Assembly (NCBI GenBank): GCA_008632985.1
Contig: QPGO01000168.1
Coordinates: 1-64,000, forward strand
DNA from: Psammoneis japonica
Taxonomy: Eukaryota
DNA length: 64,000 nucleotides
Reading direction: 5' to 3'
A program made the translations under genes and the position numbers. This document shows positions 3,736 to 45,282 of this stretch, piece by piece; position 1 is the first letter of the stretch; each line of letters begins with the position of its first letter. Below the pieces are notes generated by a model. That model worked only from the letters and a program-made list of their open reading frames with translations, searched no databases and was not told the DNA's origin.

Positions 3736-3838
3736 AAATTATGATCATTGAAATTATTCAGTTCTTTAAATAAAAACATGGAACGGTCATTTTCAACGCC
3801 AACAACACAAAAGCATCACAACAGCAACAACAACCACC

Positions 3839-7150: not shown

Positions 7151-8010
7151 CTAAGAAAGGGCTTCTTCTGCTTCTTTCCCGTCTCCTTTTCCGTCAACAA
7201 TGAGGCTTGCGCATTTTTTCAGATTGGCCTTTTCCGACTTGATCAGTTCTTTACAACGATCTTGAATGACCCACAAGTCAGCGTTACCCTCGATGAATTT
7301 CTCCCAGTCAATAACGGCATTCAACCATCCACGGAAACGTTCGTTCTGACAAAAATGATCCAGCACAACTTCACCTTGCTTTAAGTGCTTTTCTCAGCCC
7401 ACGAGTTGCCTTGTGTCATCGTGCACAACAACAAGTGGAACAAGGTCGCAAGCACGTGATTCTGGGCTTAACGATTTAGCGGCCCCACACCACATTTTGT
7501 CAACGCCCCAATCCGTTGGCTGGAACACATGCCAGGGAGTGAGAGCTTGGTCCAACAACCAGTCTGCAAAGTCTCCTCTCAATTGAGCAAAGGACTGTTG
7601 GACATGCATTGTTTGGATCGGTGAAGACAGTGCAAACTCTGGAACGCTGCACCTCTTCCACAACTGTGCTTCGTGGAATTGATGCTGCTCGTTCTTGTCA
7701 TGTTTTTCCCAGTCGAATGCATCAGCATGGCAGGTGCAATCTTGACTCCATTTGGAACAAACTTTCCATTGGCCAAGAGATGTTGGACTTGTCCGACATC
7801 CGTTGCTGGTGCACTGGTCGCTTCAAGATTGTGGGCCTGAGGAGACAAGAGCTGAGATCATTTCCTCCATGGAGGCACGTCGCTCTGTCGATTGGCCCAA
7901 GTTCATCCAGCGAACCGGCAGAGGCTCGGGCTCATGATGCACGTCAGCCTCGCATTGCCCCTCATCCAGAACTTCAGGTCAGAAAGATGGTTCTCCTCCA
8001 AGCCTGACAC
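7151..8010 (-). pseudogene. Internally deleted paralog of the GT25 gene at 20837-23628
   Basis: PLPVRWMNLGQSTERRASMEE matches PLPIYWINLEQSTERRALMEE; QPTDWGVDKMWCGAAKS and WEKFIEGNADL match the C-terminus. Near 7690-7710 the N-terminal part is joined directly to QFHEAQLW, skipping ~320 codons. Confidence 0.85.
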
Positions 8011-8131
8011 CGATGACGGCACTTCGTCATGTGACTCGACAGGTGCAGACGTGCTGACGCGTTCCAGCCCCAGGTGGGAGCTCGCAGTGCTGACGTGTGA
8101 CAAAAACAATTTTTGTCATCCGTCGCATGTT

Positions 8132-8410
8132 TCACACGTAGATTTCTATGTGTGACATTTAAAAAAAATTGTCCAGACTCGCTGTTTTGCAAAGCCCCAG
8201 ACATTTTACATGACAAATTTATAGAAACAACAATGCGCCAGTTGCATTCTTCAATGTCTGAAGAATGTAACTGGCCAAGTAAAAAATGATGTGCTTCAAT
8301 CATGTGCGAGTTTGTGCGTTCGCAAAATTGCCTCATTTTCTGTTGGCGATCATTGACATTTTAATTGCCGTGTGATTTTACTGCGGAGCTCGCACGTAGA
8401 AGTCTACGGG
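8132..8410. repeat. TA-retaining island bounded by two CGTAGA-N2-TCTA(C/T)G palindromes; possible DNA-transposon end
   Basis: tcacacgtagatttctatgtgtga (8132-8155) and cgtagaagtctacg (8395-8408); the interior has normal TA content while both flanks are eroded. Confidence 0.5.
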
Positions 8411-12943: not shown

Positions 12944-13219
12944 TGACAGAAATCGAAGGCAAGTGGCAAGAATTCAAACAATGACTCCTTGCTGCTGTCT
13001 AAACAGCAGATGAGTCTCCGCTCAGAGACCGTCACAGGAGCTGAAAGACGTGCAAGTTGGCACAATCGGGCTGCTGTTGTCATTCTTGTGAGCCTTGTGG
13101 CTCGAAAGCAAACTGCATCGTGCACGAACGCATGGAACTGAAGCACACAAAACTGTGCACGGCAAACTAAACAGCGCGCGACATGTCGCACGCACCTGAA
13201 TCCTGTTCAAATCCTGCCA
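12944..13219 (-). repeat. 3' LTR of the copia element
   Basis: Aligns without gaps to 19730-20005 (~22 substitutions by hand count); preceded on the minus strand by purine tract GGGGAG (13220-13225). Confidence 0.95.
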
Positions 13220-23628: not shown

Positions 23629-24350
23629 TTTGAAGCAGGATCCACCTCTGGGGATACACTTATGCCAGTAGCTGTAATGTTGAATGAAGATAATTTGTAA
23701 CTGGTTATAAACATGGTTTGAAGAAAGCTTTCTTTTGATTTCTCTTTTCTCACATGGAGTCAGAATGCTCAGAGAGCAGGACAGGGCTTTTGCTTGTGTG
23801 CCACCACGAAGTACCCACACGGAGCGACCAACATCAATGTTCCGTGTTGCCGTGTTGACTGATGCCGGAGTTATGCACAGAGCTGTCGATAAATTTCTCA
23901 TTACCTTTGCAACAAAGGTGCTTTGCGAAAAGTTAGTTCCATTTTCAACATCTGACATCATGAACAACACCTGCCTTGGACACACTCGCAACACATTGGC
24001 AAATAAATAAGAGCTGCACACCGATGATGCTCCTCTTTCATGTGTGTATTTTTTGCTCTTGCGGGGTCAAAATCTTCTCTACGGTACTCTCTACTCTCTC
24101 TACTTACTCTCTACTTAGCTCTAACTAGAGCTTTAGAGTGTAGTGGCAGCTAATTGTCTTCCGAAACATCGGAGTCGAATGGGTCATGCGGGATTCAAGA
24201 TTCGCGACTCGACGGACGAAGGGAAATTGACCCTTTCGAAACATCCAGAAAATTGACAACAGCAACAAAAAACCCACTCATGTGCTGAGCTCTCCCATCA
24301 GCTGAACGACATTCTCATCTGAGGGAAGAACCAAAATGATGAAGCAGTTG

Positions 24351-24370
24351 CCCCCCCCCCCCCCCCCCNC
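24351..24370. other. Poly-C run containing an N (24369); possible assembly join
   Basis: Direct observation. Confidence 0.7.
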
Positions 24371-27300
24371 TGAGAGCCAAAGCCATGGGTGTGGAGACAC
24401 ATCACCTCCCTCAATGTGCCCTGCCTCTCACTCTGCACCATGCAGGATTTTCACTCAAACCACACAAGTTTTGCATGACAACATCATGAAAAAACATGTG
24501 CTGCTGTCACAGTTGTTGTGGTGTGTCGTTTGAGTCATGTTTTGTTAAAATGCCACCTTTTGCTCAAACATGCCATGTTTGAGAAAATGGGACTTGATGT
24601 TTGAGGAATTGCTCAAACTTTGCACAATTTTCAGCAATTGCTCAAACTTGACAAACATGTGCATTTTGAGCATAAAATTGATGCTGCCAGCAGTGTAAAA
24701 CTGCTGTGTGGTGTTGGCCTGCTCCACAGCACTTGCTGCACATGCTGCTGTTGCTGCTCTTGCACTGCATGCAGGTGTCAGTGCAAAACAAATGCAACAG
24801 ATTCAAGGTGTTTTTTGTCGCCATTGGTGACAAACAACACAGTCACCACCACATTGCAACACGAGTGATTGTTCCTCAATGACAACAATTTCAAGAAACC
24901 CAGCGACAATCCAATGAAAGACATGTGATGCAAACTCAGCCAGCCACACCTGAAAATGTTGAAAGTTCCCATGGAATGGGCTTGTTGGGGGGGCTGTGTG
25001 GACCAACAAGGAACAGTGTCATGTGACAACATTTTGTTGTTTGTTTTGATCAAAAACATTTTTCAAAGCATGCCTTGGCATTGACACGCACTGCAACATT
25101 GTCATTTGTTGTTCCAAGTCAAAAATGTGGCACAAATGGATTTTCGGTGCTGGCACCAGTCATCACTTTCAAATGTTTCTTGGTGTGGTGTTTGCTTGTG
25201 TCCACTGTTGTTGCAAACATGTGCTTGTTTGGGCAGTCTTCTTGCGTGGTGCTGGGGACAATCTGGCCTTTGCTGCACATGGTGGCAGGATCATTCATGT
25301 GGTGGGTGAGCTGCCTGCTTGGGGGCTTGGCATGACACAGCTGGAAAGTGCCTTCTGCAACTTGCAGCTCTTGAGTGCCTCAAGAGTTGTGTGAGTCAGA
25401 CAGTTTTTCAAAAACCATGAGTGTCAAGTGGTGCACACCTGTGCCACAAACTTGGCCACACATCCAGACTCAAGACATGTCAAAGAAAAACACATCTGTC
25501 GCTCACACGCTGACAATTTCTGTGAGCTCACTTCACACTTGGTTCCACCTGCAGCTGGAGTGCATCCAAACACACCACAAATGACACACTGTGGACATGT
25601 GTGCTTGAAGACAATCACAAAAACACCCCTTTTTCCATTGGCGGTCATTGATTTGCTCATTGCCACCTGACAATTTTGCTGCAGAGCTTGCCCGCAGAGA
25701 TCTGTGGGCCCAACATCACATGGCTCCTCACCCAGGGCCAGAGCTCATTGTTTGCAAAATGCAACAAATGAAATGAGGTGCAGCAGAGCAACAAAACTGG
25801 TTGTTTGTTTTTTGGCATTGAAGATGGGCACACATGGATCATGATCCAGCACATGACTTGCAGAGCTTGCAAGCAGAACTCTGTGGGACAAACACCCAAG
25901 AATTTTCCAACCAGAGCTGGAGCATGTTTGCAGCTGTGTTGCAGCAGTTGATGAGCTCAAGATCTGAGTGTGGGGACAACACACAAGGGGAACTGCATGG
26001 CATGTCACATTTTTTGTCATCACCTGAAGTTCGCGCACATGCTTCAGTGCAACTTCACCTGTGTCTTGCAAGCCAGTGCTGCTGATGGGTGCCGTGGTTG
26101 CTTGCAGCTTTTGGCAAAGAGAGGGTGTGGCAAAACAAAATGAAAAATTGGCAAGGGCAAGCCATTCCAAAAAACAATGGCACAGGTGACATCACAGCTG
26201 CATTTTAAATCAAGCACCATGAGACAATGCCTCACATCAATGCAGGCTGTTTGTCAATGATGGATTGTCAAGATGAGGTTGATTTGGTCCAGAGCTTTTG
26301 CTTGAGCAACATCAGCTGTTCAACAGGAGAAAATCTTTGAATGCAGAAGATGACACATTGATCATGCGGTGCAATGGAAAACCTCTCACAGGGCAGCAGA
26401 CCTGGATTTTTCTTGTTTTGCACCACGCACTGCTGCTCACGTTTTAGAGTTTGCCGCCATCCAACATGTCACTGCCAACCACCTCTGGCACCACACATGA
26501 CATTGCAACAAGAATGAAAGGCCTTTTTTCCACCTGCAGAGCAAAGGGAGAAGGATTTCTCATTCTCTTGCTGGCAACATTGCTTCTTCATTCTTTCTCT
26601 TTCCATCATTGAGTTGTTCTCAAGTTGAGAGAATCATCGTGTGCTCAGAAAAAGAGCAAATCAATGGCCATCACAAATCTGCAGTCACACCCAGAAACAT
26701 TTGCAAACCTGCAGCTTTCTCCCACTGGTCACAGCCGGGTGGGTGCAACGTGAGAGTGGTTGATGCCATCGACATTGATGGAGCAACAGCATTGTCATTC
26801 AAAACAATGTCTGCCGGCATCGACAAGGTCGTGCAATGAGCGTTTTGTCATTTCGTAATGTGGTTTGGGGGCCCCGCTTGCACGCAGCTAAGTGAAGCTC
26901 ACAACCTGAGAGTGATCCACTCTCCACATGGGAATGATGCCACTCCACTGCGGCAAGACAATGACTCTCTGGCTCAACGAATCGGCAAAATTGGCAGACT
27001 GCAGTGCCAGCCATCCTCACTCCACAAACCATCTGCTGCTGCAAAAGAAAGAAAGAATGGCCCAACAGCGACTGCGACCACGTGCAACAGCCAGTTGCTG
27101 TTCCTCAAATGTCATCGCCATCTCTGTTGCAGCAAAAAAAGTGATGCCGATTCCTCTTCAGGTCGGTCAATTGCAGCAGCAGCAGGTGTCACAATGTTGG
27201 AGCTTTCTTTTTTGTCTGATCCTTCCATCCCACCACACTGCAGAGCACTTGCAGAGAGACTGTGTTGTTGAGAATTCAGCATTCACATGTGGGGCAAACT

Positions 27301-27380
27301 CGCGAACCGAGACAAAATCAGGGATTGCTGTGGAATTGGCGCTGCAAAACAATGAAATCCACGCCTGCTGCATTTTTTCA

Positions 27381-30010
27381 TCAAGTGCGTGGCTTTGTGC
27401 TTGCCAGACAGAACATCGAAATGCCTGCTGCAATGTTCAGAACAAATGCCACAATGGCGCGCACCTGTCCAACACCCCATGCGCAATCAACCTGGCACTG
27501 GTTTGTGGTCCGGGATGTCAGCATCGAGAGACTCATTGCTCCCACTAAAAAACAGAGACTGGCAACCATCCTCAAAGCCCATCTGGAAAAGCTCCGGCAG
27601 CTGAGGGTTGGGCTCAGCACCAAAGCAGCAACTCCAGTGGCAATGGAAGTGATGGCAATGATTCTTCTGCATTTAAACGGAGCATCCTCATGGTCCGGGG
27701 CCCTGCTCCGCTAAAAAGAAAGGCAACGGCAGCCAAACAGCACGCCCACATCTTCATCGGCAGCATCCAGAAAGCAGGTTGTCAGTGCAAGACAAGTGAG
27801 CAATGCTCCCAGAAAGCCGAAAAAGGGAGGGAATGCAGTTTTGCCACCATGCGGGCAAATTGCACCATTGAGGAGAAGGAGAATTTTACCAGTGAGAACA
27901 GCCAAGCTTGCGACGGGGCAAAAGCACAACATCTTTTAACAACATCATCTCTTCGGCGACGAACACGTGCCATTTGAGCTCGGAAGCTTCGCGTGGCTTT
28001 GCACTTGCCAGACAGAACATCGAAGCACCCGTGGCGACATTCAGAGCCAATGCCACAATGGCATGCACCTGTCCAACACCCCAAATGCAATCACCCTGGC
28101 ACTGGTTTGTGGACCGAGCTGTCAGCATCAAAAGACTCATTGCTCCCACTGCAAAAAAGAGACTTCCGACCAGCCTCAAAGCCCACTTGGGAAAGCTCCG
28201 GCAGCTGAGAGTTAGGCTCAGCACTGACGCAGCAACTCCAGCGGCAATGGAAGTGATGGCAACAATTCTTCCGCATTTGAACAGAGCATCCTCATGGTCC
28301 GGGGCATGGCTGCACTCGAAAGCAAGGCAACGGCAGCCAAACAGCATGCCCACATCTTCATTGGCAGCATCCAGAAAGCAGGTTGTCAGTGCAAGATGAG
28401 TGAACAATGCTCCAAGAAAACCGAAAATGGGAGGGATTGCAGTTTTGTCACCACATGGGCAAATTGTGCCACAACAAGGAGAAGGAGAATTTTGCCAGTG
28501 AGAAGTCAAGCTTGCAACGGGGCGAAAGCACAACATCTTTTGAGCAATGTCATCTCTTTGGCAAAGAACACGTGCTGTTTGAACTCGGAAGCTGTGCGTG
28601 GCTTTGCACTTGCCAGACAGAACATCAAAATGCCTGCTGCAATGTTCAGAACAAATGCCACAACAGCGTGCACCTGTCCAACACCCCAGACGCAATCACC
28701 CTGGCACTGGTTTGTGGTGCAAGCTGTCAGCATCGAAAGACTCATTGCTCCCACTGCACAAAAGAGACTGGCAACCATCCTCAAAGCCCACTTGGGAAAG
28801 CTCCGGCAGCTGAGAGTTAGGCTCAGCACTGACGCAGCAACTCCAGCGGCAATGGAAGTGATGGCAATGATTCTTCCACATTTGAACAGAGCATCCTCAT
28901 GGTCCGGGGCACGGCTGCGCTCGAAAGCAAGGCAACGGCAGCCAAACAGCATGCCCACATCTTCATTGGCGGCATCCAGAAAGCAGGTTGTCAGTGCAAG
29001 ATGAGTGAACAATGCTCCGAGAAAACCGAAAATGGGAGGGATTGCAGTTTTGTCACCACATGGGCAAATTGTGCCACAACAAGGAGAAGGAGAATTTTGC
29101 CAGTGAGAAGTCAAGCTTGCAACGGGGCGAAAGCACAACATCTTTTGAGCAATGTCATCTCTTTGGCAAAGAACATGTGCTGTTTGAACTCGGAAGCTGT
29201 GCGTGGCTTTGCACTTGCCAGACAGAACATCAAAATGCCTGCTGCAATGTTCAGAACAAATGCCACAACAGCGTGCACCTGTCCAACACCCCAGATGCAA
29301 TCACCCTGGCACTGGTTTGTGGTGCAAGCTGTCAGCATCGAAAGACTCATTGCTCCCACTGCACAAAAGAGACTGGCAACCATCCTCAAAGCCCACCCAG
29401 GAAAGCTCCAGCAGCTGAGGGTTGGGCTCAGCACTGACGCAGCAACTCCAGTGGCAATGGAAGTGATGGCAATGATTCTTCTGCGTTTAAACGGAGCATC
29501 CTCACAGTCCGGGGCATGGCTGCACTCGAAAGCAAGGCAACGGCAGCCAAACAGCACACCCACATCTTCATCGGCGGCATCCAGAAAGCAGGTTGTCAGT
29601 GCAAGACAAGTGAACAATGCACCGAGAGAGCCAAAAATGGGAGGGGTTGCAGTTTTGTCACCACATGGGCAAATTGCACTGTGACAGGGAGAAGGAGAAT
29701 CTTGCCAGTGAGAACAGTCAAGCTTGTGACGGGGCAAAAGCACAACATCTTTTGAGCACATCATCTCTTCGGCAAGGAACACGCACCATTTGAGCTCGGA
29801 AGCTGGCACTGTCTTTGGTTCTTCGTCAACAGTTGCTGATTCCAAGTGCCTCGGCCTTGTTTGTCCTTGCTCAATTGTCAGAAGGTCAACATCTTCGAAT
29901 GACTTGCATGCTTGTGGATCCTTTGGCTTCGTTTCTTCTTCATCTGCTTGCGAACTTGTCTGCATTTGTGGTGACGATGCGAGACGGCAGAGCATTTCCT
30001 CATCAGGCAT
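27381..30010 (-). pseudogene. Eroded multi-pass membrane-protein gene whose TM-encoding part forms the 605-bp tandem unit
   Basis: Unique hydrophilic N-terminus (MPDEEML...ATVDEEPKT) followed by repeated hydrophobic segments (PIFGFLGALFT, IIAITSIAAGVAASVLS, ALRMVASLF, AIVAFVLNIAAG) and a CQGDCxWG loop; no Tyr. Confidence 0.5.
27385..29803. repeat. Four tandem copies of a ~605-bp unit
   Basis: tttga(g/a)ctcggaagct recurs near 27973, 28578, 29183 and 29789; ORF pairs 28407/29012 and 28294/28899 are nearly identical. Confidence 0.92.
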
Positions 30011-31494
30011 GTCAGCTGGTGTTGGCTTCTTGTTCGTGGTTTCTGTGAGCAAAAGAAGACGCCAAGGGAACACAGTGTGAAGTTGGTTTTGCCATGTGTG
30101 CAAATTCTGTGTTGGCGTTCGCGATCGCGATCGGCGAGTCTTGGAAATCGCACCCGGACCCATGCACGAGTGCACAACATCATCATGATGTGACTCAGCA
30201 TCGCATCTTTGTTTTGATGCATGCCAGGAATGAAGAAACAAGCCGTGGCAATGGCTTGATGGCCTTGGTCACATGAGAAACGACTCTCTTTTGCGTTGCT
30301 GCAACTGCAGACTCAAGACGAGTTTTGTTTGCTGTTGCGTGCTGTGCATTTCACGGGCAGAACATCAGAGCCGTTTTGAAAAATGAGACCTCGGACTTCG
30401 GACATGATGACGTCATTCGTCCTTGTCAGAATCTTGACAAGCTCACTCACAAGGGTCATCGGAGTGCAGCAGGTTTCTTGGCTCTGTTGACTTTGGTGAC
30501 AACGGTGCATTCTTTGTGAGTTGTGATTTAAAGAGAGGGTCCATGATTCACAAGGGGCTTTTCACAAGCACTGTGGGGCCCACCGCAACGAGGTGCAGCT
30601 TCTGCAACATGCACGTGGACAATGCTTCTGCTGTTGGCACACTGCACAAAGCATTCCTGTGTCTCACTTGCATTTTCCATGGTGCTCCAGTGCCATCTAG
30701 ACGAGTGCTTTCTTCTGTGTCTGCGAGACTTCTTTTGGAACTTGCATCACCGTTGTTCTCCTTGCATGAGTGGACTGCTTCCAACGTGCCTCTGCAGTGC
30801 TGCAGTGCCGTCCTTTTCCCTTGAGTTGCTGAGGAAATGTTTGTTCCCAATCCTTTGAGGAAGCCACCCTTCAGACTCATGTGCTTGATGGCAATTGTGC
30901 TGGAGTTCTTCACCCGCCAGAGCAACAGCGCAGCAGCAAATCCCTTGGCAGTTGTCCACATGAAGGGCAGCTGAATTTGAGGCACCTTGGAGCACAGACA
31001 AGATGTTGGACTCACAAAGTCCCAAAAAGCCACCATGTTTTAGTGCATTCACAATGAGGTCATGATCCACACATGCACCTCCACAGGTGGCCGGAAATGT
31101 GGTGGCAGGAAGCATTGTGGTGTCAGCAATCTTCATGGTTGATTTGCTGTTTTTGTGACGGAAAAAACATCGCGTGTCTGTCATGGTCACGGAGCGGAAG
31201 CAGCTGCGGGCAACATGCAGACTTGCGGGGGGTCCCCGTTAAGTTGCGCGCCGGTGCAACACACAGCACATGTGCGCATCTTGCTTTCTGTTCCATGTCA
31301 CTGCAGGGTCACGCATGTTGGGGTGATTTGTGGTTGTTGTGTCATGACACACTGCTTGCAACACCAGCATTCCCCACATCTTGTTCAAACATCCGGTTTG
31401 ATCCCAGCAGATGCAATTGTGAGGATGAGTGATGCTGCACCCAGCAAGAAGGCCTTTTTTCCATGCAGATGGTGTCCGCGTGCATGCTGCCCCG

Positions 31495-31717
31495 TAAAAA
31501 AGAACTCTGGAGCAACAAATTTGCACAGAAGCAGAGCACCAGAACCCCAGCAGAAATGCCAAGAAAGTCCAGAATGTCATGATTTTTTGACATCGTCCCT
31601 GGCGCTGATTCTGCGCTGGACTCTGCACAATTTCTCGACACTCCAGACTTTTTTGACATTTCTGCTGGGGCGCTGGCACTGCTTCTGCACAGTTTGTTGC
31701 TCCAGACTTCTCTTTTG
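31495..31717. repeat. Hairpin with ~90-bp arms and ~45-bp spacer
   Basis: tctggagcaacaaa...cagaagca...ccccagcagaaatg is matched in reverse complement by catttctgctgggg...tgcttctg...tttgttgctccaga. Confidence 0.8.
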
Positions 31718-33279
31718 CCTGGCAGCCTGTCAAAGCCTGGCTGCACACAGTTTCCAGCACACCAGCCACCTGCTGATGTCATTTGAGACAGGCAAAACAA
31801 AGGCACACATGCTCGAAAAGTTCAGCCAAATTTTTGATTTTTCAGGTGTGGACACACATGGAAAACACACTGTGGAGCTTTCAAATGATGCACTGGTCAT
31901 TGCAAACAGCCGCTTGGTTGGAAAGACACAGCAACAAAGTTCATCACAAGTCAAGCGAGGGGGTTCAGAGAATTTGGTGACTGCATGGTTGCACAAGTCA
32001 GTGCAAATAAACACCAGGCACATTGTTGGAACCCTCATGACGAGGATTTCATGTTGATGAAGACATGTCAATGAAGCCCAACAGTTAAAAATGGCATGGA
32101 CATTTTTGTTGTGATTGCAAGTGATTTCGATTGACTCGCATGGCAACACATGGCACATTTTCTCAGAATGTGCATCCAGCAAAAGGGACCCAGAGCACAT
32201 GCGAGTTTCCATTTCAACTCTCTTGTTTGCAATCTGTCCAAACATTTTTGTTCGATTCTTGTTCCCCATTGCTGCAACAGCAGACAAGCAAATGGCTGGT
32301 TGCAGCTGGGGACAAGCTTTTGCCGTGCCCTCCCTGCCAGCTCCAGAGCCATTTCCTCTCTGTCAATCTTGCCAGCAGATCCTGCACATGAGTTTTGACC
32401 CACAAGTTCACAGCTTTTGCAGTGGTCAGCTCATGTGTGGCTCTTGTGCTTGCCATTTGTTTCCTCACACCCCAAGCAAGCAACAGGCACTTGGTTGTTG
32501 TTGCTGTGTTGAATGATGACTCATGGTGCTTGCCATGCTCGCCACCTGCCTCCTTGCCCTGTCATTTCAAGCAAACACTCTTCCCAAGAACACACTTGCA
32601 TGTGAGCAACATTTCAGCTCTCACATCCTGAAGAGTCAACTGCAGAGTTGATGGTCACCTTTCACATGTTTTGGCACAATGTGGCCAGATCCCAAGTCAT
32701 GAGTTCTCCATCCCTTCCCTTGCCTGGATGAATGGCCCCATGCAAGTTGTGTCATCATGTGCAACTTTGCAGGCTTGGGCACTTCTTTCTGGATGGCTGG
32801 CACTTCAACCAGTGCTGGTGACACAAGCCAGTTGTGCAAATCAAACAGCACCAGTTCCACAAACTTGCAGCAGAAAGCAAGCACCTGACTCAGGGAGCAT
32901 GTTGCAGACAGTCCAGCAGCACACATCTCATTGTCAGCGCGATGTTCTCTGCTTGAGGTTGTGCCCAAAATTGTCAAAACTTGCTGCTGCTTTGTGCTGC
33001 CACCCTCCCCATGAGGAGGGCACAGCATCTTCTCCATGCACTGCCCCTGGTTCTCACCTGGGGTGCTGGACAAGCTGCCATCATCCACTGTGTGACAGCA
33101 GCAATGATCAGGAGGTGCTGCCAGCTGTCGGCTTGTTTCAGCTGCACCATGATCAGGGCAATCTGCTGAAACGCATGACATCTGACATCACATGACTTCA
33201 ACAGAAAATGAGCAAACCCCAATTTTGGCAGTTGTCAATGCCCACAGCTAAAAAGTGAATTTCAGTCTTGCCTTTTCTG

Positions 33280-33460
33280 CATGTCCCAGCAAAAGCTGAG
33301 ACGCGCATCCCCCAAACTGCGTGTTTCAGCAGTTGCCAAAACCTGGCGCTGCATGTTTCAGCGGGTTTGGCTGAAACCTGCCAAGTTTTGGCAACTGCTG
33401 AAACCTGCCATGTTTCAGCAAATGCTGAAACATGCAACAGGCAAAATCATGTTTCAACAC
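33280..33460. repeat. Cluster of alternating GTTTCAGC/GCTGAAAC motifs forming nested palindromes
   Basis: At least six copies in both orientations, e.g. gtttcagcagttgccaaaac and gttttggcaactgctgaaac. Confidence 0.75.
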
Positions 33461-34328
33461 GTGACTTGGCTCCGGAACGAAAAAATGCCACCTGTGTCAC
33501 TGGCGCCAGCTCTGCTTGCAAACACGCAGCATGTTGGAACACAAGCTCGCCACTGCAGTCAGCACCTTTGAGTGCACTTTGGCAAAGCTTGAAGCAAATG
33601 AATGACCGCAAAAGCAAAATGTTTGTGTGGCCCACATTCGAGCCAGTCTGCTGCATCAATGCTGTGTTGTGATGATGCACTTTGATCACCACGCAGTCGA
33701 CGCTGTCTTGGCACGATGAAGAGTCACTGTTGCAAAGTGTTTTTCTGCTTTTTTTGGGTCTTTTGCACCTTGTTCTGCCAAAATCTTTCATGCAGATGCT
33801 GTGTCATTTTGCGCCAATTGATGCGGGCTGCTTCTGCAGCTGTGGAGGTGAAGCATGCATCGAAAAACACAGCGCACGTCAGCCAAGACTTTTCAGAAAA
33901 ATGACGGCCATCAACCGCTTTGCCTGTGGGATTCTGTGTGCCTCTGGCATGTGATGTGCACACCAAACACCAATCTCTGTGATGAAAAACTTTGTTGCTT
34001 GTGTCATGCAGCGCCAGTCTCAGATGCCCGGACGGTTCTGTGGTGCGACCTCTACAGCCAGGCGGAGCATGGTGGGCAACAACAAAATTGCAACATTGAA
34101 GACACACGTGTGAAGGGCAACGGCATTTTTGTCCAATGACTGAAGATGTGGCGGGTGTCAAAAATGGCGGGAAATCCTTCTCGGGAAAGGGAAGGCCAGC
34201 AGCAGGCTCTCATTTCTCATCTTTTGTGCGGGGGTTCAGTGAGGACTGCATGCGCACTGCGACGATGCTTTCACATGTCTTGATTGTTTCGCACGAGTGC
34301 AACCGGCATGAGCACCGTTAAAAACACC

Positions 34329-36682
34329 ATGCTGTTTTCTTCCAAGATGCCCATCAGATGGCCCTTCCTGGCATTCTGTCTCATCCACGAATTCAAAATA
34401 CAAAAGATGGCATGCAGCGCTCAGGAACTGCCTGGTTTCAGAACACCCGCCTTTGACTGCAGCATGTTGCACCGCCAGAATGTGTGTGACCGGCAGCAGG
34501 CGTGGCACAATCGAACAGCTCTGTTGCGTGATGCACTTGAGGGCCTTGAGCTTCACGCTTGGCTCCCCTTTGGTGAGTTTTCGTCGCTTGGTCCTGATGC
34601 GGGTGCGATTGTTCAAGATCAACCCGGGTTCTACGTTGAAACACTTGACGAAGTTGCAAGACGGGGCAGGTTCAAGTGGAGGGATTCCTTTGGCATGACT
34701 GAACACAAGAGTTGAAATGGGAAACAAGAGTGCAGATGAATTGCTCCAATGGACGATTCAAACTTGTGACATTGCTGCGTCACAATGGAGCAAGGACGTT
34801 CGAAGAATCAACTCCGGAGCGAGCTTTCCAGAGGGGGTGTTTGGTGGAAGTGTCGCCATGGTCGGCACTCAGGAGAGCGATTCAAAACTTGACATTTGGC
34901 CCTTCTTGGAGCCTTTTGAATGGAGCGTGTGGGTCATGATTGTTGTGACGTTTCTCGTCGTGGGCTTGACCCACATCCCTGCTCATGCACACGAACCACC
35001 CACCTTGTGTGGTGCGGCAAGGCAAATGACCCACATTTGACCGTTGGGTCGTGCAAGCCGTTTGAACTCAAATTTGAACGTGCTTGCGCGAACTTGGCGA
35101 GCAAATGATGGTTTTTTCTGCTCTTTTCTCGTTTGCTTCACTCATTCTTCCGAAGAGCAACAAAGAGCAAGAAGCCTGGTGGCTCGTGTGCATTTTTGGG
35201 TGCACACGAACCACCTGGTGGTTCGTGTGCACCCTACGCAAAATCCTGCGTAGATTTGTACCGAATTAAATCTGAGTGCCTACATCTGCAGTAGGATCTA
35301 CGTGAAAACGCACTCGAAACGTGTCCACCGAGCCGGCAGTCATGTGCCGGCCGTCGTGTAAAGTATTTTATGTCTGAGAAAGAGTTCGTCAGGGCCGGCG
35401 AACAGCACCCCCTACGTTGCGATTGGTACAAAATCTACGTAAATGCACAGAAACCAGCGTGTGGCTTCTGTGCAAATTAGAGCTCGTGAAAAATAAGCAG
35501 GGATATGTGGAGTGAGTTATTGTTCGCATACGCTGATTGCCCTGGAGCCTTGTAGGTTCGCGTCACTGATACTCCATCTTGTTTCTCATTCACACTATGC
35601 AGTGGAGTGGTTCAATGAGGATTCTGATCGTCAAGAGCCAGGAAACACACCCACAGAAACAGTCTGCTTTGCGGCGCTCAGCTTCACCGGGGATATCAAA
35701 TTTGAGCCGAGTACCGACTATGCCCGGCTTTTTGTTTTTGCCTTGGCCTTCTGGAGTCTCCTCATGGCATCTGCCTACACCGCAAACCTAGCTAGCTTTC
35801 TTGTGGTGGAAAACACTCCGTCTCTCCAAGTGGAAAGCGTCGAACAAGCTGTTCGACTCAAACTTCCAATGTGCGTCCTCGCAGATAGCACTAACGAATT
35901 CGAGGTATTGGACGCCCATCCCGGCGCCAAACTCATACGCTTTCCAGCGAGTGGGGGTGAAGAACCTATTTATCGGGGAGTACCCGTGGAGAGTGTATAT
36001 TGGCATTAACGACAGTCGGTAGCTGGGATAGATACAAAAGAAACAGCGAAGCGAACGGGGATGCCGACTCTCTTGGGTTGGCAGAGTGTTTAGGTTCATC
36101 CAAGGTGGTCTTGCGTCTTGCAACCTTTTCCGACTCTGGAACACTCTGTACCTCTCTCATTCGGGATGTGTTCAACTTGCATCTTCTCGAAATGCATGCA
36201 GATGGTTTTGTTCGCACTGAGTGGAAGAAAGCGATCGAAGCCACTGCGGATATCAACTGCGACATGGCGGCTAGTGATACCGACGGTTCCGGAGGGAGCG
36301 ACTCAAACATAAGGCTATCCCTCACGGACATGGGAGGCTTGTTCATTTTCTTTTATGGTTTAACAGGTATTACCGTCTGCATGGCCCTGTTTCAGAAATG
36401 GAATCATAAACGAAAGCTCAAACAAAACATCGATCAGGAAAGGAGCGCCGGAAAGACGGGGCAACGCCACAAGATTGGCATGGTGGCAGTGAGACTGCCG
36501 ACGAGCCTTTCAATTCCGCACGAGCGCAACTGAAAGAGATGCGTCAGCAACTTAGTGACCAAATGGAGAAACTTAACGACCAAATGGAGACAAATCAAAG
36601 GATGGAACAGCAAATGAGCGATATGCTCCTTATGCGTGATAGTGGCGAACATGAAACGAAAACATCCCCGGACTGTCATTGA
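34329..36682 (+). pseudogene. Ionotropic glutamate receptor-like (GLR) channel gene, disrupted; 5' half eroded, 3' half normal
   Basis: GFYVETLDEVARRGRFKW (S1), FLEPFEWSVWVMIVVTF (M1), FWSLLMASAYTANLASFL (M3, SYTANLA motif), LSLTDMGGLF (M4); insertion at ~34980-35600 and several frameshifts. Confidence 0.85.
34986..35231. mobile_element. Small MITE (34986-35192) plus an adjacent 'empty' TIR pair (35201-35231)
   Basis: tgcacacgaaccacc (34986-35000) pairs with ggtggctcgtgtgca (35178-35192); 35201-35231 is a perfect 15+1+15 palindrome of the same sequence. Confidence 0.6.
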
Positions 36683-37670
36683 GCATGAATACACGACAAA
36701 CGAAGACCTCGTGCTCTTTGTGTTTTTGTAATAACACCATCTACAACACGAGACGAAGTAAGACTACCGACTGCCTTGTTCAAGGATATCGAAGGGCCAT
36801 GTTATGTGCTCTTTGGGAATCCATCAACCAGTGCAGCACACACGCAGGACTCGTACTTTTTGTGATTGCTGAGATGCTACGTTGCCCCCTTTGTTCGTGG
36901 CCTACAGTATTGAAATGTCCACGCGAGTGAAACCACTGTCGGACGCGACGGACGGAGTCTCCTCGGTTGACGCCATTCTATGAAATACTTTTAGACACGA
37001 CATTGACATTGTTTCTAAAACTATTTGGATTTATATAGCGATTCTAAAGGCGAATGCGGCACGCCACCGAGTCTTCTGAAGTACAAAAGGGAATAATAAA
37101 CGATTTGAACACGCCTTTTCTGTCCCATTCCTGGCTTGTGCCTCGCGCCGTATTTCGTTTATTGTCACGAGAACTTTTGAGTTACTTTTTTAGAGACTGT
37201 GACGCCTTCGCGGTCCATCAAGCTAAAGCCGTCAACAGCGAATTTAGTAATGCGCGCCATTACCAAAGCATTTTCAGTGTCTCACGCAAGTTACTGTGTG
37301 ATATCTTGATAGACGATGAAAACTATCCTCGGAAGTTGTGTTTATGCATAAGGGTTGGCGGCCGGATGGTAGCTGGCAATACATACCAGGATTTGGAAAT
37401 AGGACTTTAGTAACATCAATGCTACAAAACCAGAAGGTATCTTTATTCGAGGGAGACATTTTAATCATGTTCACTGAGAGCACTAGAAGAAGGATCTTGA
37501 AGATTGCCTTGGCGTTTCGGCATTGCCTTTTAAAATCCCTCTACTTTGAGTCTATTTGTATGCCGTGTCAAGAGCTTTCGCAATGCCTCATGCTTTCAAC
37601 AGTACGCCCTGTGCGATGAGAATAAAGTACAAAAACTCATTGTAGTATAAACACACAAACTACAGCACTA

Positions 37671-39220
37671 CTACTCTTGTTTAGGTTGTTGTCCCCCTTT
37701 TATTCCCAACACATGCATTTCTTGTGACAAGTCCGACAGGGTCGATTGCACTCCACCGCTATTAAAGGTTCCCAACGACATGGCTGTTCCCGATGACATG
37801 TTTCGTGATCGCAACGGTCCCACGTCGTCCATCATTTCAACGACATTCCATCTCTGTTGATCACTGCTATTCAATACCGATCCCAAATGCTCGACTCCCG
37901 AATGAGGTTCAATCATGGAAAAGGTCAAATCACTCGAACTGGATACATCAAATCCCAACCCACTTAAACGCATGGAATTCCTCATTTCCACATCCACGTT
38001 TGCCAAGTCTTGAAACAAAATACCGGGATCCGCATTCGTCGAATGAATGCTATTGGAACGTATTAGATTTTCCACATCAATTTGAGATGACCGCAGCGAG
38101 TTTCGAGTGTCATCCATAGATGAAGACAAGACGCTGCCGCGAGGATCGATATCCATACCGTCCGCAGGCGTGGTAGCTGTAGAATCAAACGGTTCGGCTG
38201 GACCAATGATCTGTGCCGTGCGATCGAGAGCACTCGATTGGAGACTGTTCTTGGCTGCCATTTCGGCTTGTTGTGTTTCCTTGAGAGTCGCTCGCAGGTT
38301 ACCATCCAAGAGTCGATTCGATCCCGAACTACTCGAATTGCGCAGCTTGGATTCATCCGCGGTAATTCCTGAAATGGACGACACATTGGTGGACGCCGAC
38401 GAGTGCGGTGATGTGTAGGGCCGACCAAACGCATAATGTGGCAGTTCTTTCGAGGATGTCAAATCCAGAGCATCCAAAGCACGGTTGTGACTGTGAAATT
38501 TGGAGGGAATGTTGTTCAAGGCCACGGGAAAATCAAATCGACGTGCTGCAGTAGCAGATGGACTGTTGTTGCCTTGGTACGTGTGATAGACGGGTGTATC
38601 TTCTTGAATGGTTGGATTGTTTGTTGTTGCCGTGCTTCTACTGGATGAAATGTTGGGACTTACAATGTTTGGACTCGACGCCACCGTATTATCATGATCG
38701 TCCTCCAATTCCTCGCGAATTTCTGGAGCATCCTCTCTCAGAGCTGTAATCGTGTTTCCAAGACGGTAAATAAGTGCGTTGTAGAAGAATAAAACAGAAT
38801 GAGACATGATTAAGACTTAATAATCACTAAAACTAGAATCGAACAAAGTAATCACGCATTATTAATTCAAAATTCCCACTCACCTTGCCCCACTTTTTTG
38901 ATTGCCTTGGCATCACCTATATCATACCACATGCCATCGGGATCTTGCAATAAGAAGCGCCCCGGTGGATCCATGGCGCGTATATCCTCTACGAGTTTTG
39001 CGGCAATGTGCGCCTTTTCCAGCTTTTTCGTTTCAGGCGCGAGATATATTTTCTTTCGGCGCTTACAAATATCTCGGAATTGAACGTTGCCCTCATGCGA
39101 ATTTATGCGACCGCCACGACCGCACAAGACATCGTTGCAATTGGGATGCGCTACAGGACCAATGCCGCGGGGTGCAACCTTGAGCTGAGGACGGGGCTGT
39201 GCTGTGGACTTTTTGGGCAT
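37671..39220 (-). CDS. DUF6824-like domain protein with a Ser-rich low-complexity C-terminus; intron 38744-38883
   Basis: NDVLCGRGGRINSHEGNVQFR...PPGRFL...WYDIGDAKAIKKVGQ|ALRE is restored by GT-AG splicing; frame intact. Confidence 0.88.
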
Positions 39221-39852
39221 TGTTATTTTTACTGCGTGCAGAAAAAAATGTGAGGCGAAGCTCGGTGAGACGATTCATTCGACTAAAATAGATAAAGCAC
39301 AGCGAAATTACTTTTCAACCGTTACCGGCTGAATCGCATCACACGCCGTGGATTCTATCATGATGCAAACTAGAAATACACACAGAGACATCGATGCGCT
39401 GCGTTGCAACCGCAAGAGACGTACCATCACCATGTCGACGCACGCAACAACGACAGCAAAACAACAACAACCGAGCGCGATGGGAATTCTTTTGTCGATC
39501 AACACCGGCGGTCTTCCCAATTCCTACGTAAGTTGTTAGTATGTTTCTACGCAGGGTCTCTCAATTTTCAGCGTTCCATTTTATACATATCTACATGACA
39601 ATAGATTGTTTTATATGAAGGTTCGAATTCTCTTTCATGTAAACATATATGTGTATATGGACAAAACGCGATAGTCCGTTGAGAAGGATTTTTCGGCCAC
39701 ATTTTTTTCTCGAAACAACATTTTGAGATCAAGCCGTTGAAGCAACGCGCACCTAAATTGATTTAAAAATTCAAACCAAACGCATGCTGCAGACACAAAT
39801 CACATTCTCTCTCTCTCACGCATAAATAACAAGTGCAACATTTTGGTAAACC

Positions 39853-42800
39853 ATGAAGGTGCATCTTTTTGCATCATCCCTCCTTTTTGCGGTTGGCAAA
39901 GTGCGAGGCCGTGTTTCGCCAACCCCAAGGAGAGCTACGGCGTCCTTCCGGTCGTTTGCTGGAAGTGGCCCCACCGCCACTCCTAGTCCAACTCGAGATG
40001 GAGCCATGCCGTCCTTCCGGTCTTTTGCTGGAAGTGGCCCTACCACCACTCCCAGTCCAACCGCTCAACCTACTTCAAGTGATCCCCCTACCAGTTCCAG
40101 TCCATCCGCTCAACCTTCTTCAAGTCCATCCGCTCAACCTACTTCAAGCCCAACAGATCCTGCAAGGATTGGTCTCGACATTGGCTGCATTGTGTCGTCT
40201 GACACCTTTGATGGTGTCTTGGAAGGCACCCCTTGTCAAGAGATTCCTCCTCTTGTGGATACTCAGTGTGCTCCGGGCAATGATCCGCTCACTCTTGTCA
40301 CCTTTCGGTACAGCTACAGCACCTGTGACACCAGTGACAATAACCAGAGTGGCCTATGCAGTGACGAATTGGAAAACAAAGACGAGTGTGAAGCAGCTGA
40401 CGCGGTTCGAATTGTATGTGTCGGTGATGGCGGCGAGGCCTTGTTTGACGATACGGGCAGTACACAAGATTTCTTTTTTGTTATTGAGGGAACGCCGGTA
40501 TTGCCAAATGCTATTACGTGTGAAATCTCTCTTCCAGGTAATGGTGACCCCTGTCAAAGCATGACAATCGACACAGCAGGGATTGATGGTGCTCTTGATT
40601 TGGGAGACACGTTTGGCAGTTTGGAGTTGCGCCGTTGCAGAGACATCAACAGCAATGGTAAGGCCTGTAGAATCGCCGTGAATTACTTGTATACGGTTGA
40701 CAACACTGGAGGCACCGACTTAAATGTTACGGCACTGGAGGTGATGCGCAACGGCGTTGCACAGGATTTTATAGACCTAGTCAATCCCAAAATCCTATCA
40801 CCTGGAGAAGGCGTTCTTGTGGACGATGCCGCCTTTGTTAACCGTTGCCAAAACCAGTGTTTCAACACCAGTGCAGTCGTTGAAGCAGACAGTGTTCCAG
40901 CAGGCGAGACCGTCCGCGACCGGGATCAATACGAATTTTGCCTCGTGTTTGATCCTGATTTTACAGAGGTACGTTTTCTAGATTCTGCAAAAATATGATT
41001 ATAATCCAAATTGTCATGACTCATGCTTTTGAAAACATTGCTTCATGGAATCCGTCTCTCCAGGTTGAACTTAGCTGCGCCGTATCAAACGACCCCGCCG
41101 AAAACCTTGCAAATGGAATCGAGTGCGATGCCATTCCTCCCCTTTTGGATACTCTATGTACTGGAGACCCAATCACGGATCCCCTCACGTCTCTCACGTT
41201 CGAGTACAACTTTGCCCTCTGCCAAATGGATCTTCCAAGCGCTGGCGGATGCCTTGATACAGCAAATTCTGAAGATGCAGAACTTTGTGGCGACGCTACA
41301 GAATTCACTCTTATTTTTGAGGGTGGCGGTGAGACTTTTTTTGTGACAAGTGGCGATCTACTTCAAATTGGTGATGGGACGACTGCTTTGCCGGAAAGCT
41401 TCGCCTTCCAAATCATGGTTTCCGATAATGGTCCGCTGTGTCAAACCGTGACTTTTGACACCACCGGAGTTGAAGCTGGGCCCATTGAAATCGGAAATGT
41501 ATTTGGTAGTCTCACTACAAAGCAATGTGCGCTGGGAAGCGGAAACATAAAGAGCTGCATCATTGATATTGAATATATTTCGGCGGTTACAAATGTTGCA
41601 GAGACGGACCTGTCTATCAATCAGTTTGTTCTTTCCATTGAGACTGGTAGCGATGGATCAATCGAAATGTTGTCTCCCAATGCTACGACCATCGAACCCG
41701 GTCAGAGCTCTGTTGCGGTCACCCCAACAACATTGGACCGTTGTCAAGATGCGTGCTACGATGCAACGACATCCGTGCAAGTCGAAGACACAAATGGTGT
41801 GATCAAGAATGACAAGGACGACTACAATTTTTGCGTCGCATTCGAGCCTTGCGAAATTGAGGTAAGCTACTGAAAACGAAAAGCAACACAGTTGAGGAGA
41901 GAGTTTGAAAGCCCTTCAAGCATTTTCTAACTATTTGGATATCTGTGCGTTTTGTTATGATAGGTATCGATTGAATGCACCCTTTTTGATGATCCAAGCA
42001 CATTCTGTGACCAAATCGTCCTTCCAGAGTCCAAGAGTTGCTCTACTACACATCCTAATTTTATTGATCAATTGACGGTTTCAATCCAGGATGTTGATTG
42101 TAATGAAAACGTAACAATGCAAGACTTTACTTGTGACGACTTGAATGACATTGCCCTGGATGGAATCTTTCGCGTCGCGTGCTTTAGCGATGGGCGTACG
42201 ATATACGACGAAGACGACGTCGTTCTGGATAAGACATTTCACATTCGAGAGCTGGCGGGTATGCCCTTACCACAAGACCTTGAGTGCAATATCTATGACC
42301 CCAACGATGAGAATCAAATTGTGCAAAAGGTTGTTTTCGACGCGAGCGGTGGATCACCACTTTCTCTCAAGGACAAATATGGAAAGGTACAGATTGAAGG
42401 ATGCAAAGATGAATCGGGTTACAGGGATTCACAGTGTCGCGTGGAGGTTGACTACGCATATACCATGTCAAACATTGGTGATGAGGATGCCCGTATCACT
42501 GAATTGATTGGCACCGTGAATGGAGAAACAAGAAATTTAACTATGCTTCTACCCGCTGACTTTACTCTCTCCCCTAACGAATTCGTCGTAGCTTACAACC
42601 CCGAAGAAATTGATCTTTGCATTGAGGACGATCCGTGCTTTGAAAGCACATTGACTGCCAAGGCTGAAACGAGTGGTGGAGTTCCATGCCAAGCCTTGGC
42701 GGAGAATGAGTTTTGTCCGTCACCACCCGGCATGGACGAGGTAAGTTGTGACTTCATAGAAATGTGCTTGTTTATTCTTGTCCTGGTGAGCTCGAGCTAA

Positions 42801-43008
42801 ACACATTGCCTTTTCTTAGTCTTTTGACGAGTCTGATGACGAGCCTGATGATGGCAAAAATGCCAAGCCAGAGAAAAAAGAAAAGGCAAAGAGCAAGCTT
42901 CGAGGAGAAACAGCAGCAGCAAAGGACATCAAGACAAAAGAGAATAGTAAAAGTAAATCGAGCAAGTCACACAATCCCCGAAGTAAGAGCAAACACATCA
43001 AACTTTAA
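39853..43008 (+). CDS. Secreted protein with a Pro/Ser/Thr stalk and three Cys-containing repeats (DUF7467-like); introns 40969-41063, 41862-41963 and 42741-42819
   Basis: Signal peptide and PTSSPSAQP repeats. Each large exon repeats ...Q.....D.......L...FG.L...C...Y.Y...N.G. GT-AG introns keep the frame to TAA at 43006-43008. Confidence 0.82.
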
Positions 43009-45282
43009 TCAAGTGAAACAAGAGTCGCATGGGAAACAGGCTGTTAGCATGTGCATTTCAACGTTGCACATGTTTGTACTACTGGCCGCTAAATCATAAA
43101 AGTTAACGCAATTGCTTATGCTGCATTTTGATTTTATACGAGGATGCACCATCCATGTGCAAATGGCGTCAGAATCCACTTTCGAAAAGTGTTCTCTCTT
43201 TTCAGAGATCTCTTCTTACACACCCGGTTTGAATCCAGATGCTTGTCTCGACAGGCCACCTCTGACGTTTCCCACCACACTGTACACACCAGTCAGCTTT
43301 TCCCTCCAACTTGAAGCTCTGTGGCTGAAGCCAGTTTTTGCTTGCCTTGCTTGTCATTTGCATCAAGCATTCGGGTGAGCTGACATGAATCCATGAGTCT
43401 TGCTTCACATGCTGCAGCTCTCCTGACTCTAGCTGGTGAGACAGGACTTTCTGGCTGGACTGGAGATGGCTTCACCATCGCTGTGCATTGCCTTCTCTCA
43501 ACCCAATGCCAGATGGCAAGGAGAGAGGCTGGGAGTTGGGGTTGGGTGGGGGGCAGCCACACAATTTTTTGATCCCATGACAGGGCCATTCAGCAGCAGT
43601 TGTTGATGAAAAAAATCATTTGCAGAAGTCATGTGTGCATGACAATGTTGTCATTGTTTTGAAACCCAAGCAACTGGAAAAGGTCTCGCTGGATCACAAA
43701 AAGAGAAAAACACGAGTGGTGCCTTGAGTGTTGCCTCAAGCAACATTGTCATTTCACACACCTTTTGTGGCACCTTGCAACAGACTGGTTGGCAAACACC
43801 AAAGCAGCTCCACAGTTGAGATGGCATCCTTGTGGCTCACTGGCAAATGGTGGGGGGCATGCTCAAAAGTGCAAAGCTTCACAAATGCAAAAATGAGCAC
43901 TGTGGCAGTGTGGGCAACTCGCCATTGCCTTTGAAGGCTGCACCCCATTGTCTCACAAACCAGTGCCAGGCACCCTCAATGGAAAGATGGCACAGGTCTT
44001 TGTCTCTGTGCAACCTCTGGCTCATGTCTGGACACACCCTCCAAGCTTTTCCTGCAGGACTGCCAGGGCCCAGGGCCACTGCAAGGTTGGGCCTGTGGCA
44101 CCAGACTTGGGGCTCAAAAGCCTCACTTGCAAAAAAAACATTTTGCGTGCACAAGGCCCAGCCCTGCACTCTTGCAACTGTGCAAGCCAGCTGTGTGAGT
44201 CCCTTTTTTGCTCTCTTGTTTTGTGTGTGCACAGCTGTGGCTTTAAAAATCTTGTTGAATTGATTCCACCATCAAATGGACAGAGGGCCTGCAAAGCATG
44301 TGCAATTGCTGCAAAGAGGCTTGCTGTGTGGCAAGGAGTGTGAGAGTGTGCACGGAGTCACGCATCGTCATTGTGGCAGGCTGCTGAGTCAAAAAAATTG
44401 CAACAGCATCACAATCTGCAACAAATTCTGAGCCCTTCACAATCACTGGGAGGCAAGTTGAAACACAACCCTTGTTGCCCTCCAAGATCATCTTTGCGGC
44501 ACGGGCAACATCCTCTGCCGGCACAGCTCATGGTGCAGGAGGCGCTCTTTCCACTTTGGTCAAGAAAAGACACAGTGTGCAAGAAATGAGACAAGAAGCC
44601 ATTTTGTTTTCAAAGGAAATTGTGCTTGCAACAAGACAGCAATTCATGCCAATGCATCGCAAGATTTTGTCAAAAATGACCTTTTTGGATGACTGCATCA
44701 CACACCACCTTTTCTCACAAACAAACACAACAACAATGATGACCTGACTGGTGGTCAGTTGTTTTGTGTCACTTGCAGACCTGTGGTTGTCAAAACTGCA
44801 ACATTTGCTTGTCTGAAGCAAAAATGAAGCACTCAGTGCCAGAGACCTCCAGGGTTGGCAGCTTTTGGCAAAGATGGCATGGGGGCACATGTGGACACAT
44901 GAAAACACCTCATGCACTCATTTGTTGGCAGAACAATGTTGCCAAATGTTGTTTTGTCCATGATGTCCTGGTTGCAACCACCACTTTTTGTCATTCCCTC
45001 AAACAATGATGTCAGTCTGAGTTGCACACTGTGACTGCAGTGTGCAACAATCAGGTGCGCACAATTGCATGCTGGCACAGCAAAGTGTCATGGGCAATGT
45101 GAAGGGCAACAAAGTGACATTGTCAATGCTCAACTCTGGCACAGTGTTGTCACATTTAGTCACAACTGTTTTCAAACACAATTTGCTCCTCACAATTCTC
45201 ATCTAAGATGATCTGAGTGTCGTGACATGCCTCATAAAATGCCAATCAAGCCTTGAGTTAAACCAACCATTCATTCGCAACA

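Follow-up and report, generated by a model that had tools for sequence, protein, structure and literature searches.

How can one gene be almost free of the dinucleotide TA in its first half and carry it at normal density in its second? The question is raised by a glutamate-receptor-like gene at 34329-36682 of contig QPGO01000168.1 of Psammoneis japonica (assembly GCA_008632985.1), of which the first 64,000 nucleotides, here called the window, were analysed as a whole. The original prediction, made from the letters alone, described a gene cut in half by an erosion front, with mutated and control halves of the same age that meet at an inserted MITE/palindrome cluster. This interpretation was largely right and is partly supported, with corrections that are given below. 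The pattern is probably best explained by a TpA-to-TpG/CpA hypermutation that is confined to a chromosomal domain, with the gene lying across the right-hand edge of that domain.

The step itself is abrupt. The 5' half was said to hold only a couple of TA, and it holds exactly two in 34329-35229 (at 34399 and 34632), compared with 58 in 35230-36682. Expressed per T, this is 2/238 on the left versus 58/347 on the right (Fisher p 4.2e-12). A TA-free run extends over 34633-35234, after which 35235-35299 carries 10 TA, and to the right of 35235 the dinucleotide recurs every ~10-30 bases. The ratio of observed to expected TA (o/e) is accordingly 0.05 in 34329-34974 and 0.00 in 34975-35234, and then 0.89 in 35235-35504 and 0.55 in 35505-36682. 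The T at 35228 and the T at 35235 bracket the edge called by a two-state hidden Markov model (HMM); the best estimate of the change point falls in the same interval, and its 95% set is 35148-35251.

The TA steps lost from the left side are balanced by other dinucleotides. Per base, the left side differs from the right by -0.038 for TA, -0.012 for CG and +0.047 for TG and CA together; since the gain in TG and CA (0.047) is about equal to the summed loss of TA and CG (0.049), the mass balance fits conversion. The loss of CG is graded, with an o/e of 0.13 at 33000, ~0.75 in the 5' half of the gene and ~1.0 past 35200. Within the 5' half, TA loss is thus complete while the o/e of CG is still ~0.75, suggesting that TA loss runs ahead of CpG decay there.

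The gene is one small part of a larger mosaic. Thirteen domain edges were called by the two-state HMM in the 64 kb, delimiting seven TA-depleted blocks with abrupt edges. The depleted blocks have a TA o/e of 0.00-0.17 with TG and CA nearly doubled (CA/TG o/e is 1.5-2.0 where TA o/e is 0.00-0.05), and the other blocks have a TA o/e of 0.45-0.78. Host genes recognisable by Pfam sit in normal blocks, while a copia reverse transcriptase sits in a depleted one. The depleted domain that ends in the gene contains a 605-bp tandem repeat at ~27330-29800, and its open reading frames between 24.3 and 34.3 kb match no Pfam family at E 1e-5, with chance-level matches only at 0.05. By comparison, the reading frames of the TA-normal domain to the right include a DUF6824 and three DUF7467 domains. 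The coordinates of these domains and of the features discussed below are collected in the table.

Features of the two domains, the predicted pseudogene and its insert (positions in the window; o/e, observed over expected; a point in the strand column means that no strand applies)
Feature	Position	Strand	Details
TpA-depleted domain	24154..35228 (11,075 bp)	.	27 TA on 2728 T; P(A after T) 0.010; CG o/e 0.44
TA-normal domain	35235..43137 (7,903 bp)	.	329 TA on 2095 T; P(A after T) 0.157; CG o/e 1.02
5' half of predicted pseudogene	34329..34974	+	start ATG, N-terminal lobe, first membrane helix; TA o/e 0.05
Match to P0002 residues 1-91	34428-34700		frame 3
Frame change (+1)	34697-34706 (near)	+	tblastn to P0002
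Match to P0002 residues 92-182	34702-34974		frame 1
MITE-type insert, 530 bp including one target-site copy	34975..35504	.	in coding sequence
Hairpin A	34986..35193	.	arms TGCACACGAACCACC (34986-35000) and GGTGGCTCGTGTGCA (35178-35193), 177-nt loop
Perfect palindrome, 37 bp	35198..35234	.	18-nt stem, 1-nt loop; longest perfect hairpin in the window
Right part of insert	35235..35504	.	16 TA, o/e 0.89; intact right terminal repeat
Related, diverged hairpin	35444..35474	.	module built on TGCACACGAACCACC
Exon remnant, 5' of splice donor	35505..35511	+	codons M, W and first base of M; fits WWMEW of relatives
Intron, 91 nt	35512..35602	+	GTGAGT...CAG
3' half of predicted pseudogene	35603..36682	+	pore region, SAYTANLASF helix, second lobe, last membrane helix, coiled-coil tail, stop TGA; TA o/e 0.55-0.60
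Match to P0002 residues 186-311	35605-35982
Base missing relative to relatives and some contigs	35980..35981	+	frame 1 to frame 3; T behind 35980 in 2 contigs, depth 107/175
Match to P0002 residues 313-457	about 35985-36425
Apparent 1-base deletion	36061	+	an otherwise identical contig carries an extra G
Perfect 7-bp tandem duplication, frame-shifting	36108..36121	+	GTCTTGC twice
Apparent 1-base deletion	36455	+	extra A in all 3 contigs over the site; frame reopened to the stop at 36682

The assignment of the gene to the glutamate receptors holds. The Pfam family PF00060 (Lig_chan) matches 35497-36009 at 41.6 bits, above its cut-off of 30.8 (E 1.4e-10), and the translation of this segment contains SAYTANLASF, which we take to be the SYTANLAAF-type motif of the gating helix; YTANLASF was the conserved pattern chosen in the search for metagenome relatives. 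The peptides quoted in the original prediction, QTCDIAA, GLTHI, DYARL and AYTANLA, are all present in the translations. A protein search with the 3' exon returned 18 proteins with Lig_chan, the best being P0001 and P0002 at 75-76% identity, and P0002, P0003 and P0006 themselves score 58-64 bits with this model. Among the ligand-binding models of Pfam, none matches the 5' pieces. P0002 (568 aa) is collinear with both halves, its residues 1-457 lying in order on 34428-36425 by tblastn (residues 1-182 on the left, 186-457 on the right), so that the two halves form one gene of a short glutamate-receptor-like type. The most conserved motifs of the family sit in the 3' half. Neither half has a second copy in the 64-kb window, and neither the 3' half nor the insert has a look-alike in the index of scanned DNA. 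Several divergent copies of the gene are present in public read contigs of one sample. A paper on diatom glutamate receptors (GLRs) reports large differences in copy number between diatoms, some species having expanded sets (PMC11085791). The gene described here resembles those receptors in its Lig_chan channel with a SYTANLA-type helix, and the copies in the reads fit a variable number; it differs from them in being a pseudogene.

The scarcity of TA in the 5' half could in principle be an old property of the family, and metagenome relatives provide a control for this. Out of 80 such relatives, 49 were used, the other 31 having been dropped because less than 300 nt of the N-terminal part or less than 450 nt of the C-terminal part was aligned. 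The N-terminal part has a mean TA o/e of 0.68 in the 49 relatives, with a minimum of 0.31, compared with 0.03 here (one TA where 30.7 are expected). The C-terminal part has a mean of 0.63 in the same relatives and 0.60 here. Identity to these relatives does not exceed 45% in any best segment, or 42% for the top full-length matches, which makes them a control for density and too distant for a spectrum at the DNA level. Judged by their composition, the TA poverty of the 5' half is no trait of the gene family.

The place at which the two halves meet is occupied by inserted DNA. The original prediction had located the switch at an inserted MITE/palindrome cluster, and the 95% set of the change point does lie within the 530-bp insert, with TA returning at the right end of its 37-bp palindrome. 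The ends of the insert are 10-nt terminal inverted repeats, CCCTGCTCAT on the left and CCCTGCTTAT (in reverse complement) on the right, and the loose end of another copy of the element, among the read contigs listed, reads CCCTGCTT. The two repeats differ once, the left having CTCAT and the right CTTAT, which sets a C against a T at a TA. Relatives read GL(V/T)Y-WWMEW unbroken, whereas here GLTH stops at 34974, MW resumes at 35505 and EWFNEDSDRQ follows past the intron. Because the relatives are unbroken and the codons of GLTH and MWMEWF flank the segment, the 530 bp are an insertion into coding sequence rather than an intron. An empty site supports this, as a contig that is ~10% divergent joins 34974 to 35505 and skips exactly 530 bases. 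With its terminal inverted repeats (10 nt, one mismatch) and an empty site in a related sequence, the element is like known MITEs. Its flanks, ACAT and ATAT, are compatible with a target-site duplication of TA, of AT or of 4 bp; a 4-bp duplication with a TA-to-CA change in the left copy was a first reading of these flanks and has been dropped as unproven.

The insert is rich in secondary structure, with a single-strand fold at z -9.8 relative to shuffles. All of its hairpin modules are built on TGCACACGAACCACC. Of 10 matches to this TIR-like 15-mer, the 4 with at most one mismatch all lie inside the insert, and the others have two or three mismatches. No second copy of the insert was found within the 64-kb window, and look-alikes of it occur in many read contigs, where the summed word depth of 1,092-4,679 is 20-100 times that of single exact contigs (26-58), although word depth is not copy number. 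The TA step runs through the element itself: its left 260 bp contain no TA, and its right 270 bp contain 16. The loop of hairpin A alone has 51 T and no TA (P ~1.6e-4 at the normal rate). As the left terminal repeat and the left 260 bp are eroded and the right part is not, the insertion predates the erosion, which stops within the element, at its perfect palindrome or shortly before it.

The element also bears on the most direct objection, namely that the two halves derive from different genes that were joined by rearrangement or misassembly. The switch is flanked by the two terminal repeats, and the divergent copy joins 34974 to 35505 exactly; the halves were therefore adjacent before the insertion. 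In the specific form of an assembly mis-join within the repeated insert, which would have fused two loci, this objection seems to us very improbable. Such a join would be helped by the abundance of insert look-alikes in the reads, and at least two single-base errors in the assembled window are probable (at 36061 and 36455). None of the contig pieces listed (16 of 266) crosses 35235, and the join is carried by the assembly together with the logic of repeats and skipped bases. Even so, a repeat of 530 bp is short for a long-read assembler to confuse, both loci would need an insert at the same codon, and a single insertion would account for the terminal repeats and for the skip of exactly 530 bp.

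On the evidence of its reading frames, the gene is a dead paralogue, a pseudogene that is broken in both halves. No open reading frame is able to give a channel, given the 530-bp insert in the exon, the 7-bp duplication and the frame changes near 34700 and 35980. The 7-bp duplication is retained in a short-read contig that is otherwise the same as the window (35999-36359, with no other letters and one gap). The 3' half also includes an open reading frame at 36410-36682. The contigs that oppose the frameshifts at 36061 and 36455 are otherwise the same as the window or differ by one further letter, and these two frameshifts are probably assembly errors. The public contigs belong to a single sample, which may be the one the assembly was made from, and statements about single contigs or single differences refer to the 16 of 266 pieces and 40 of 356 differences that were listed. 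Among the sequencing runs listed as holders, none was of RNA, which has no bearing on whether the gene is expressed.

With the gene dead on both sides, neither half is held by selection, which helps the argument that one half can serve as a control of the same age for the other. It also speaks to the idea that selection or codon usage kept TA in the 3' half and disfavoured it in the 5' half. The location of the family's most conserved motifs in the 3' half would suit such a history. Against it, the 7-bp duplication and the loss of one base have broken the 3' half too, and the relatives have normal TA in their N-terminal part. Sequence without coding function, moreover, has TA at normal density on the right (the insert's right part, the intron, and the spacer as far as 37670) and lacks TA to the left of the gene. 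We consider an explanation by selection scarcely credible. The broken 3' half and the normal non-coding DNA beyond it imply that the position of the edge reflects where the process is active rather than selection.

The direction of the change can be read from other copies of the gene. Among the differences listed (40 of 356), the window has TG or CA where other copies have TA at 34766, 34852, 34857 and 34866, and the reverse never occurs in the 5' half. At 34766, for example, TAT has become TGT in a column that is Tyr in 10 of 13 relatives. Changes at 34844 and 34855-34856 strike invariant Asp and Ile codons, which places them on the branch of the window copy. The window also has TG where other copies have CG at 34408, 34538, 34941 and 35109, a type of difference that is confined to the left side among those listed. 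Where the window has G or C and other copies have A or T in the 5' half, the context is TpA in 4 of 10 listed cases. From these letters, either the process may not be strictly TpA-specific at this locus, or ordinary divergence may be mixed in. Over the 4 kb compared, the window has G or C against A or T in the reads at 120 places, and the reverse holds at 113. Many of the look-alike copies may therefore be eroded too.

The right half is a less clean control than had been proposed. The left is eroded and the right has normal TA density, as predicted, but in 35505-36682 four of the ten best-supported differences are TA elsewhere and TG or CA here (35539, 35639, 35646 and 35666). Conservation suggests that three of these four arose on the branch of the window, since Leu197 shows no variation, and Lys and Tyr are the preferred residues of columns 200 and 206. 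The right half thus probably took a few TA hits despite its normal TA density. A comparison of the spectra of the two halves with relatives, which the prediction had proposed as a check, goes in the expected direction without reaching significance. At the protein level, AT>GC accounts for 8 of 16 single-step changes along the lineage of the window in the 5' half (4 of them in TpA), compared with 3 of 14 for the 3' half (one of them in TpA), which is not significant. Tyr columns are kept in 0 of 5 cases in the 5' half versus 3 of 5 in the 3' half (p 0.17), and identity to P0002 is 58% in the 5' half versus 70% in the 3' half.

Taken in order, the likely history that accompanies a domain-confined hypermutation would begin with a duplication of the glutamate-receptor-like gene. 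A MITE-type element of ~530 bp would then have landed in its exon, just past the first membrane helix. Subsequently, the mutation process would have covered everything to the left of ~35200, including the left end of the element. Inside this repeat-rich domain of 11 kb, nearly every TpA would have become TpG or CpA, and part of the CpG would have become TpG or CpA. Normal TA density would have persisted in the right part of the element, in the intron, and in the 3' half with the spacer downstream of it. The positional target may have been a silenced or methylated chromatin domain. The chemistry could be an adenine deamination at TpA steps of either strand, which would be read as A-to-G, and a thymine-directed change would be expected to give the same pattern.

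The coincidence of the step with a perfect 37-bp palindrome invites two other readings. Palindromes are known sites of breakage and template switching, and the step could be the junction of a chimera, in which an eroded and an uneroded copy with the same insert swapped sequence inside it by recombination or gene conversion, with the palindrome as the break or template-switch point. The presence of several divergent gene copies in the reads would supply the partners, the step is located at the palindrome, and the palindrome is still perfect within otherwise aged DNA. This history would, however, require two copies with the same insertion, and the one junction-spanning copy listed is without the insert. 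Furthermore, 12 of the 13 edges in the window are equally abrupt and have no hairpin of at least 10 perfect pairs within 200 bp. On balance, such a chimera is unlikely.

A second reading, to which we would give about the same low probability, is that the palindrome is itself the stop. A hairpin or cruciform at 35198-35234 would halt a mutator that moves outward from the repeat island, following the DNA or an intermediate of transcription or replication, and the sparse hits at 35539-35666 would be those that get past. Were this true, the mutator would not passively reflect chromatin but would be a tracking enzyme that depends on single strands, and neighbouring genes would be shielded by MITE hairpins acting as natural insulators. 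Palindromes as general markers of domain edges are ruled out in the window, where one of 13 edges has a hairpin of at least 10 perfect pairs within 200 bp. The other 12 do without, so a palindrome is not needed for an edge.

Comparison with known systems helps to delimit the process. Repeat-induced point mutation (RIP), found in Neurospora and other ascomycetes, is a regional hypermutation that kills repeated DNA and can spill into neighbouring sequence. It acts by C-to-T changes at CpA, giving an excess of TpA, and it covers the duplicated segment. The process at this locus is like RIP in being a regional hypermutation of repeated DNA. However, the direction is the opposite, with TpA removed here (TA o/e 0.00-0.05) whereas RIP makes TpA from CpA. 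A further difference is that the other copies of the gene cover both halves, yet the left half alone is depleted. The existence of other copies, with half of one copy affected, indicates an aim by position rather than by sequence likeness. In methylated repeats, CpG decays by deamination of 5-methylcytosine. A comparable change of CG to TG or CA occurs in the same domain here, graded towards the gene, but CpG decay cannot account for the loss of TA.

The closest parallel comes from another lineage. In Bigelowiella natans, integrated DNA of giant viruses and virophages mutates ~1000-fold faster, at TpA only, according to the part of the report available (Mettrop et al., bioRxiv 10.64898/2026.01.13.699255). 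This hypermutation consists of A>G/T>C changes in chosen regions and was measured in mutation-accumulation lines, and an adenosine deaminase is proposed by the authors (10.64898/2026.01.13.699255, available part). A literature search for TpA hypermutation in diatoms found none, and this preprint was the sole relevant report; its available part makes no mention of diatoms or of edges (searched as 'boundar'). Compared with that part, the locus described here is alike in the change of TpA to TpG or CpA on both strands, in the matching gain of TpG and CpA and in the arrangement of affected DNA in blocks. It differs in its lineage and in that a copy of a host gene is affected, up to the edge of the step. 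TA loss is also nearly complete here (o/e 0.03-0.05), in contrast to a Rho of 0.45 given there for B. natans' NCLDV region, and CpG decay occurs alongside. Finally, strict TpA specificity is, in the same source, a feature of B. natans, while only the 4 of 10 listed AT>GC differences noted above fall in TpA in the 5' half.

The locus is thus a small natural experiment, in which a gene, its intron and an insert span an edge of a mutation process that was first reported in 2026 in one unrelated alga. Within ~100 bases, near-complete TA loss gives way to normal density in a gene that is dead on both sides, and this points to neither selection nor sequence likeness, but to targeting by position. 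With a transposon inside it as a marker and a palindrome placed exactly at the edge, it is a compact site at which the aim of the mutator can be tested. It provides an order of events, with insertion first and erosion later, as well as a concrete place for maps of methylation, histone marks and small RNAs.

The eroded half of the dead glutamate-receptor-like gene, that is, the 5' half of the pseudogene together with the left part of its insert (34329-35234), carries more TG than CA on the plus strand (98 and 73, respectively). This excess may reflect a local strand bias of mutational hits; the TA-depleted domain as a whole (24154-35228) is without a TG-over-CA bias, at 0.106 TG and 0.115 CA per base. 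The sole N in the window, at 24369, lies about 215 bp inward of the left edge of this domain (24151/24154).

TA-poor DNA is also found elsewhere in the window. For instance, the block at 13-20 kb, which contains a copia-type reverse transcriptase frame and has a GC content of 0.55-0.58, has observed/expected dinucleotide ratios of about 0.1 for TA and about 0.8 for CG, and has thus lost TA with little CpG decay. A 638-bp islet at 7495-8132 contains no TA among its 162 T, while the surrounding DNA is TA-normal.

Features within the TA-poor DNA and to the right of the pseudogene
Feature	Position	Strand	Setting	Details
Copia-type reverse transcriptase (RVT_2)	13170-15587	-		E 5e-23; 806-codon long frame
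Tandem repeat, 605-bp unit	27330-29800		TA-depleted domain, left of the gene	at least 4 copies, 73-87% identity
DUF6824	38870-39274	-	TA-normal block right of the pseudogene	one reading frame
DUF7467	39850-42797	+	TA-normal block right of the pseudogene	three successive reading frames

In the 3' half of the pseudogene, short-read contigs assembled from public reads of one sample carry an extra G at 36061 and an extra A at 36455, being otherwise identical to the window or different at one other letter. Judged by this sequence comparison, both sites are probably single-base assembly errors of the window that mimic frameshifts. Over 34320-34915, the 5' half is covered by several contigs that diverge from the window by 9-11%, indicating that the gene is multi-copy in this sample. 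One or more of these divergent copies may have the same state as the window at 34706.
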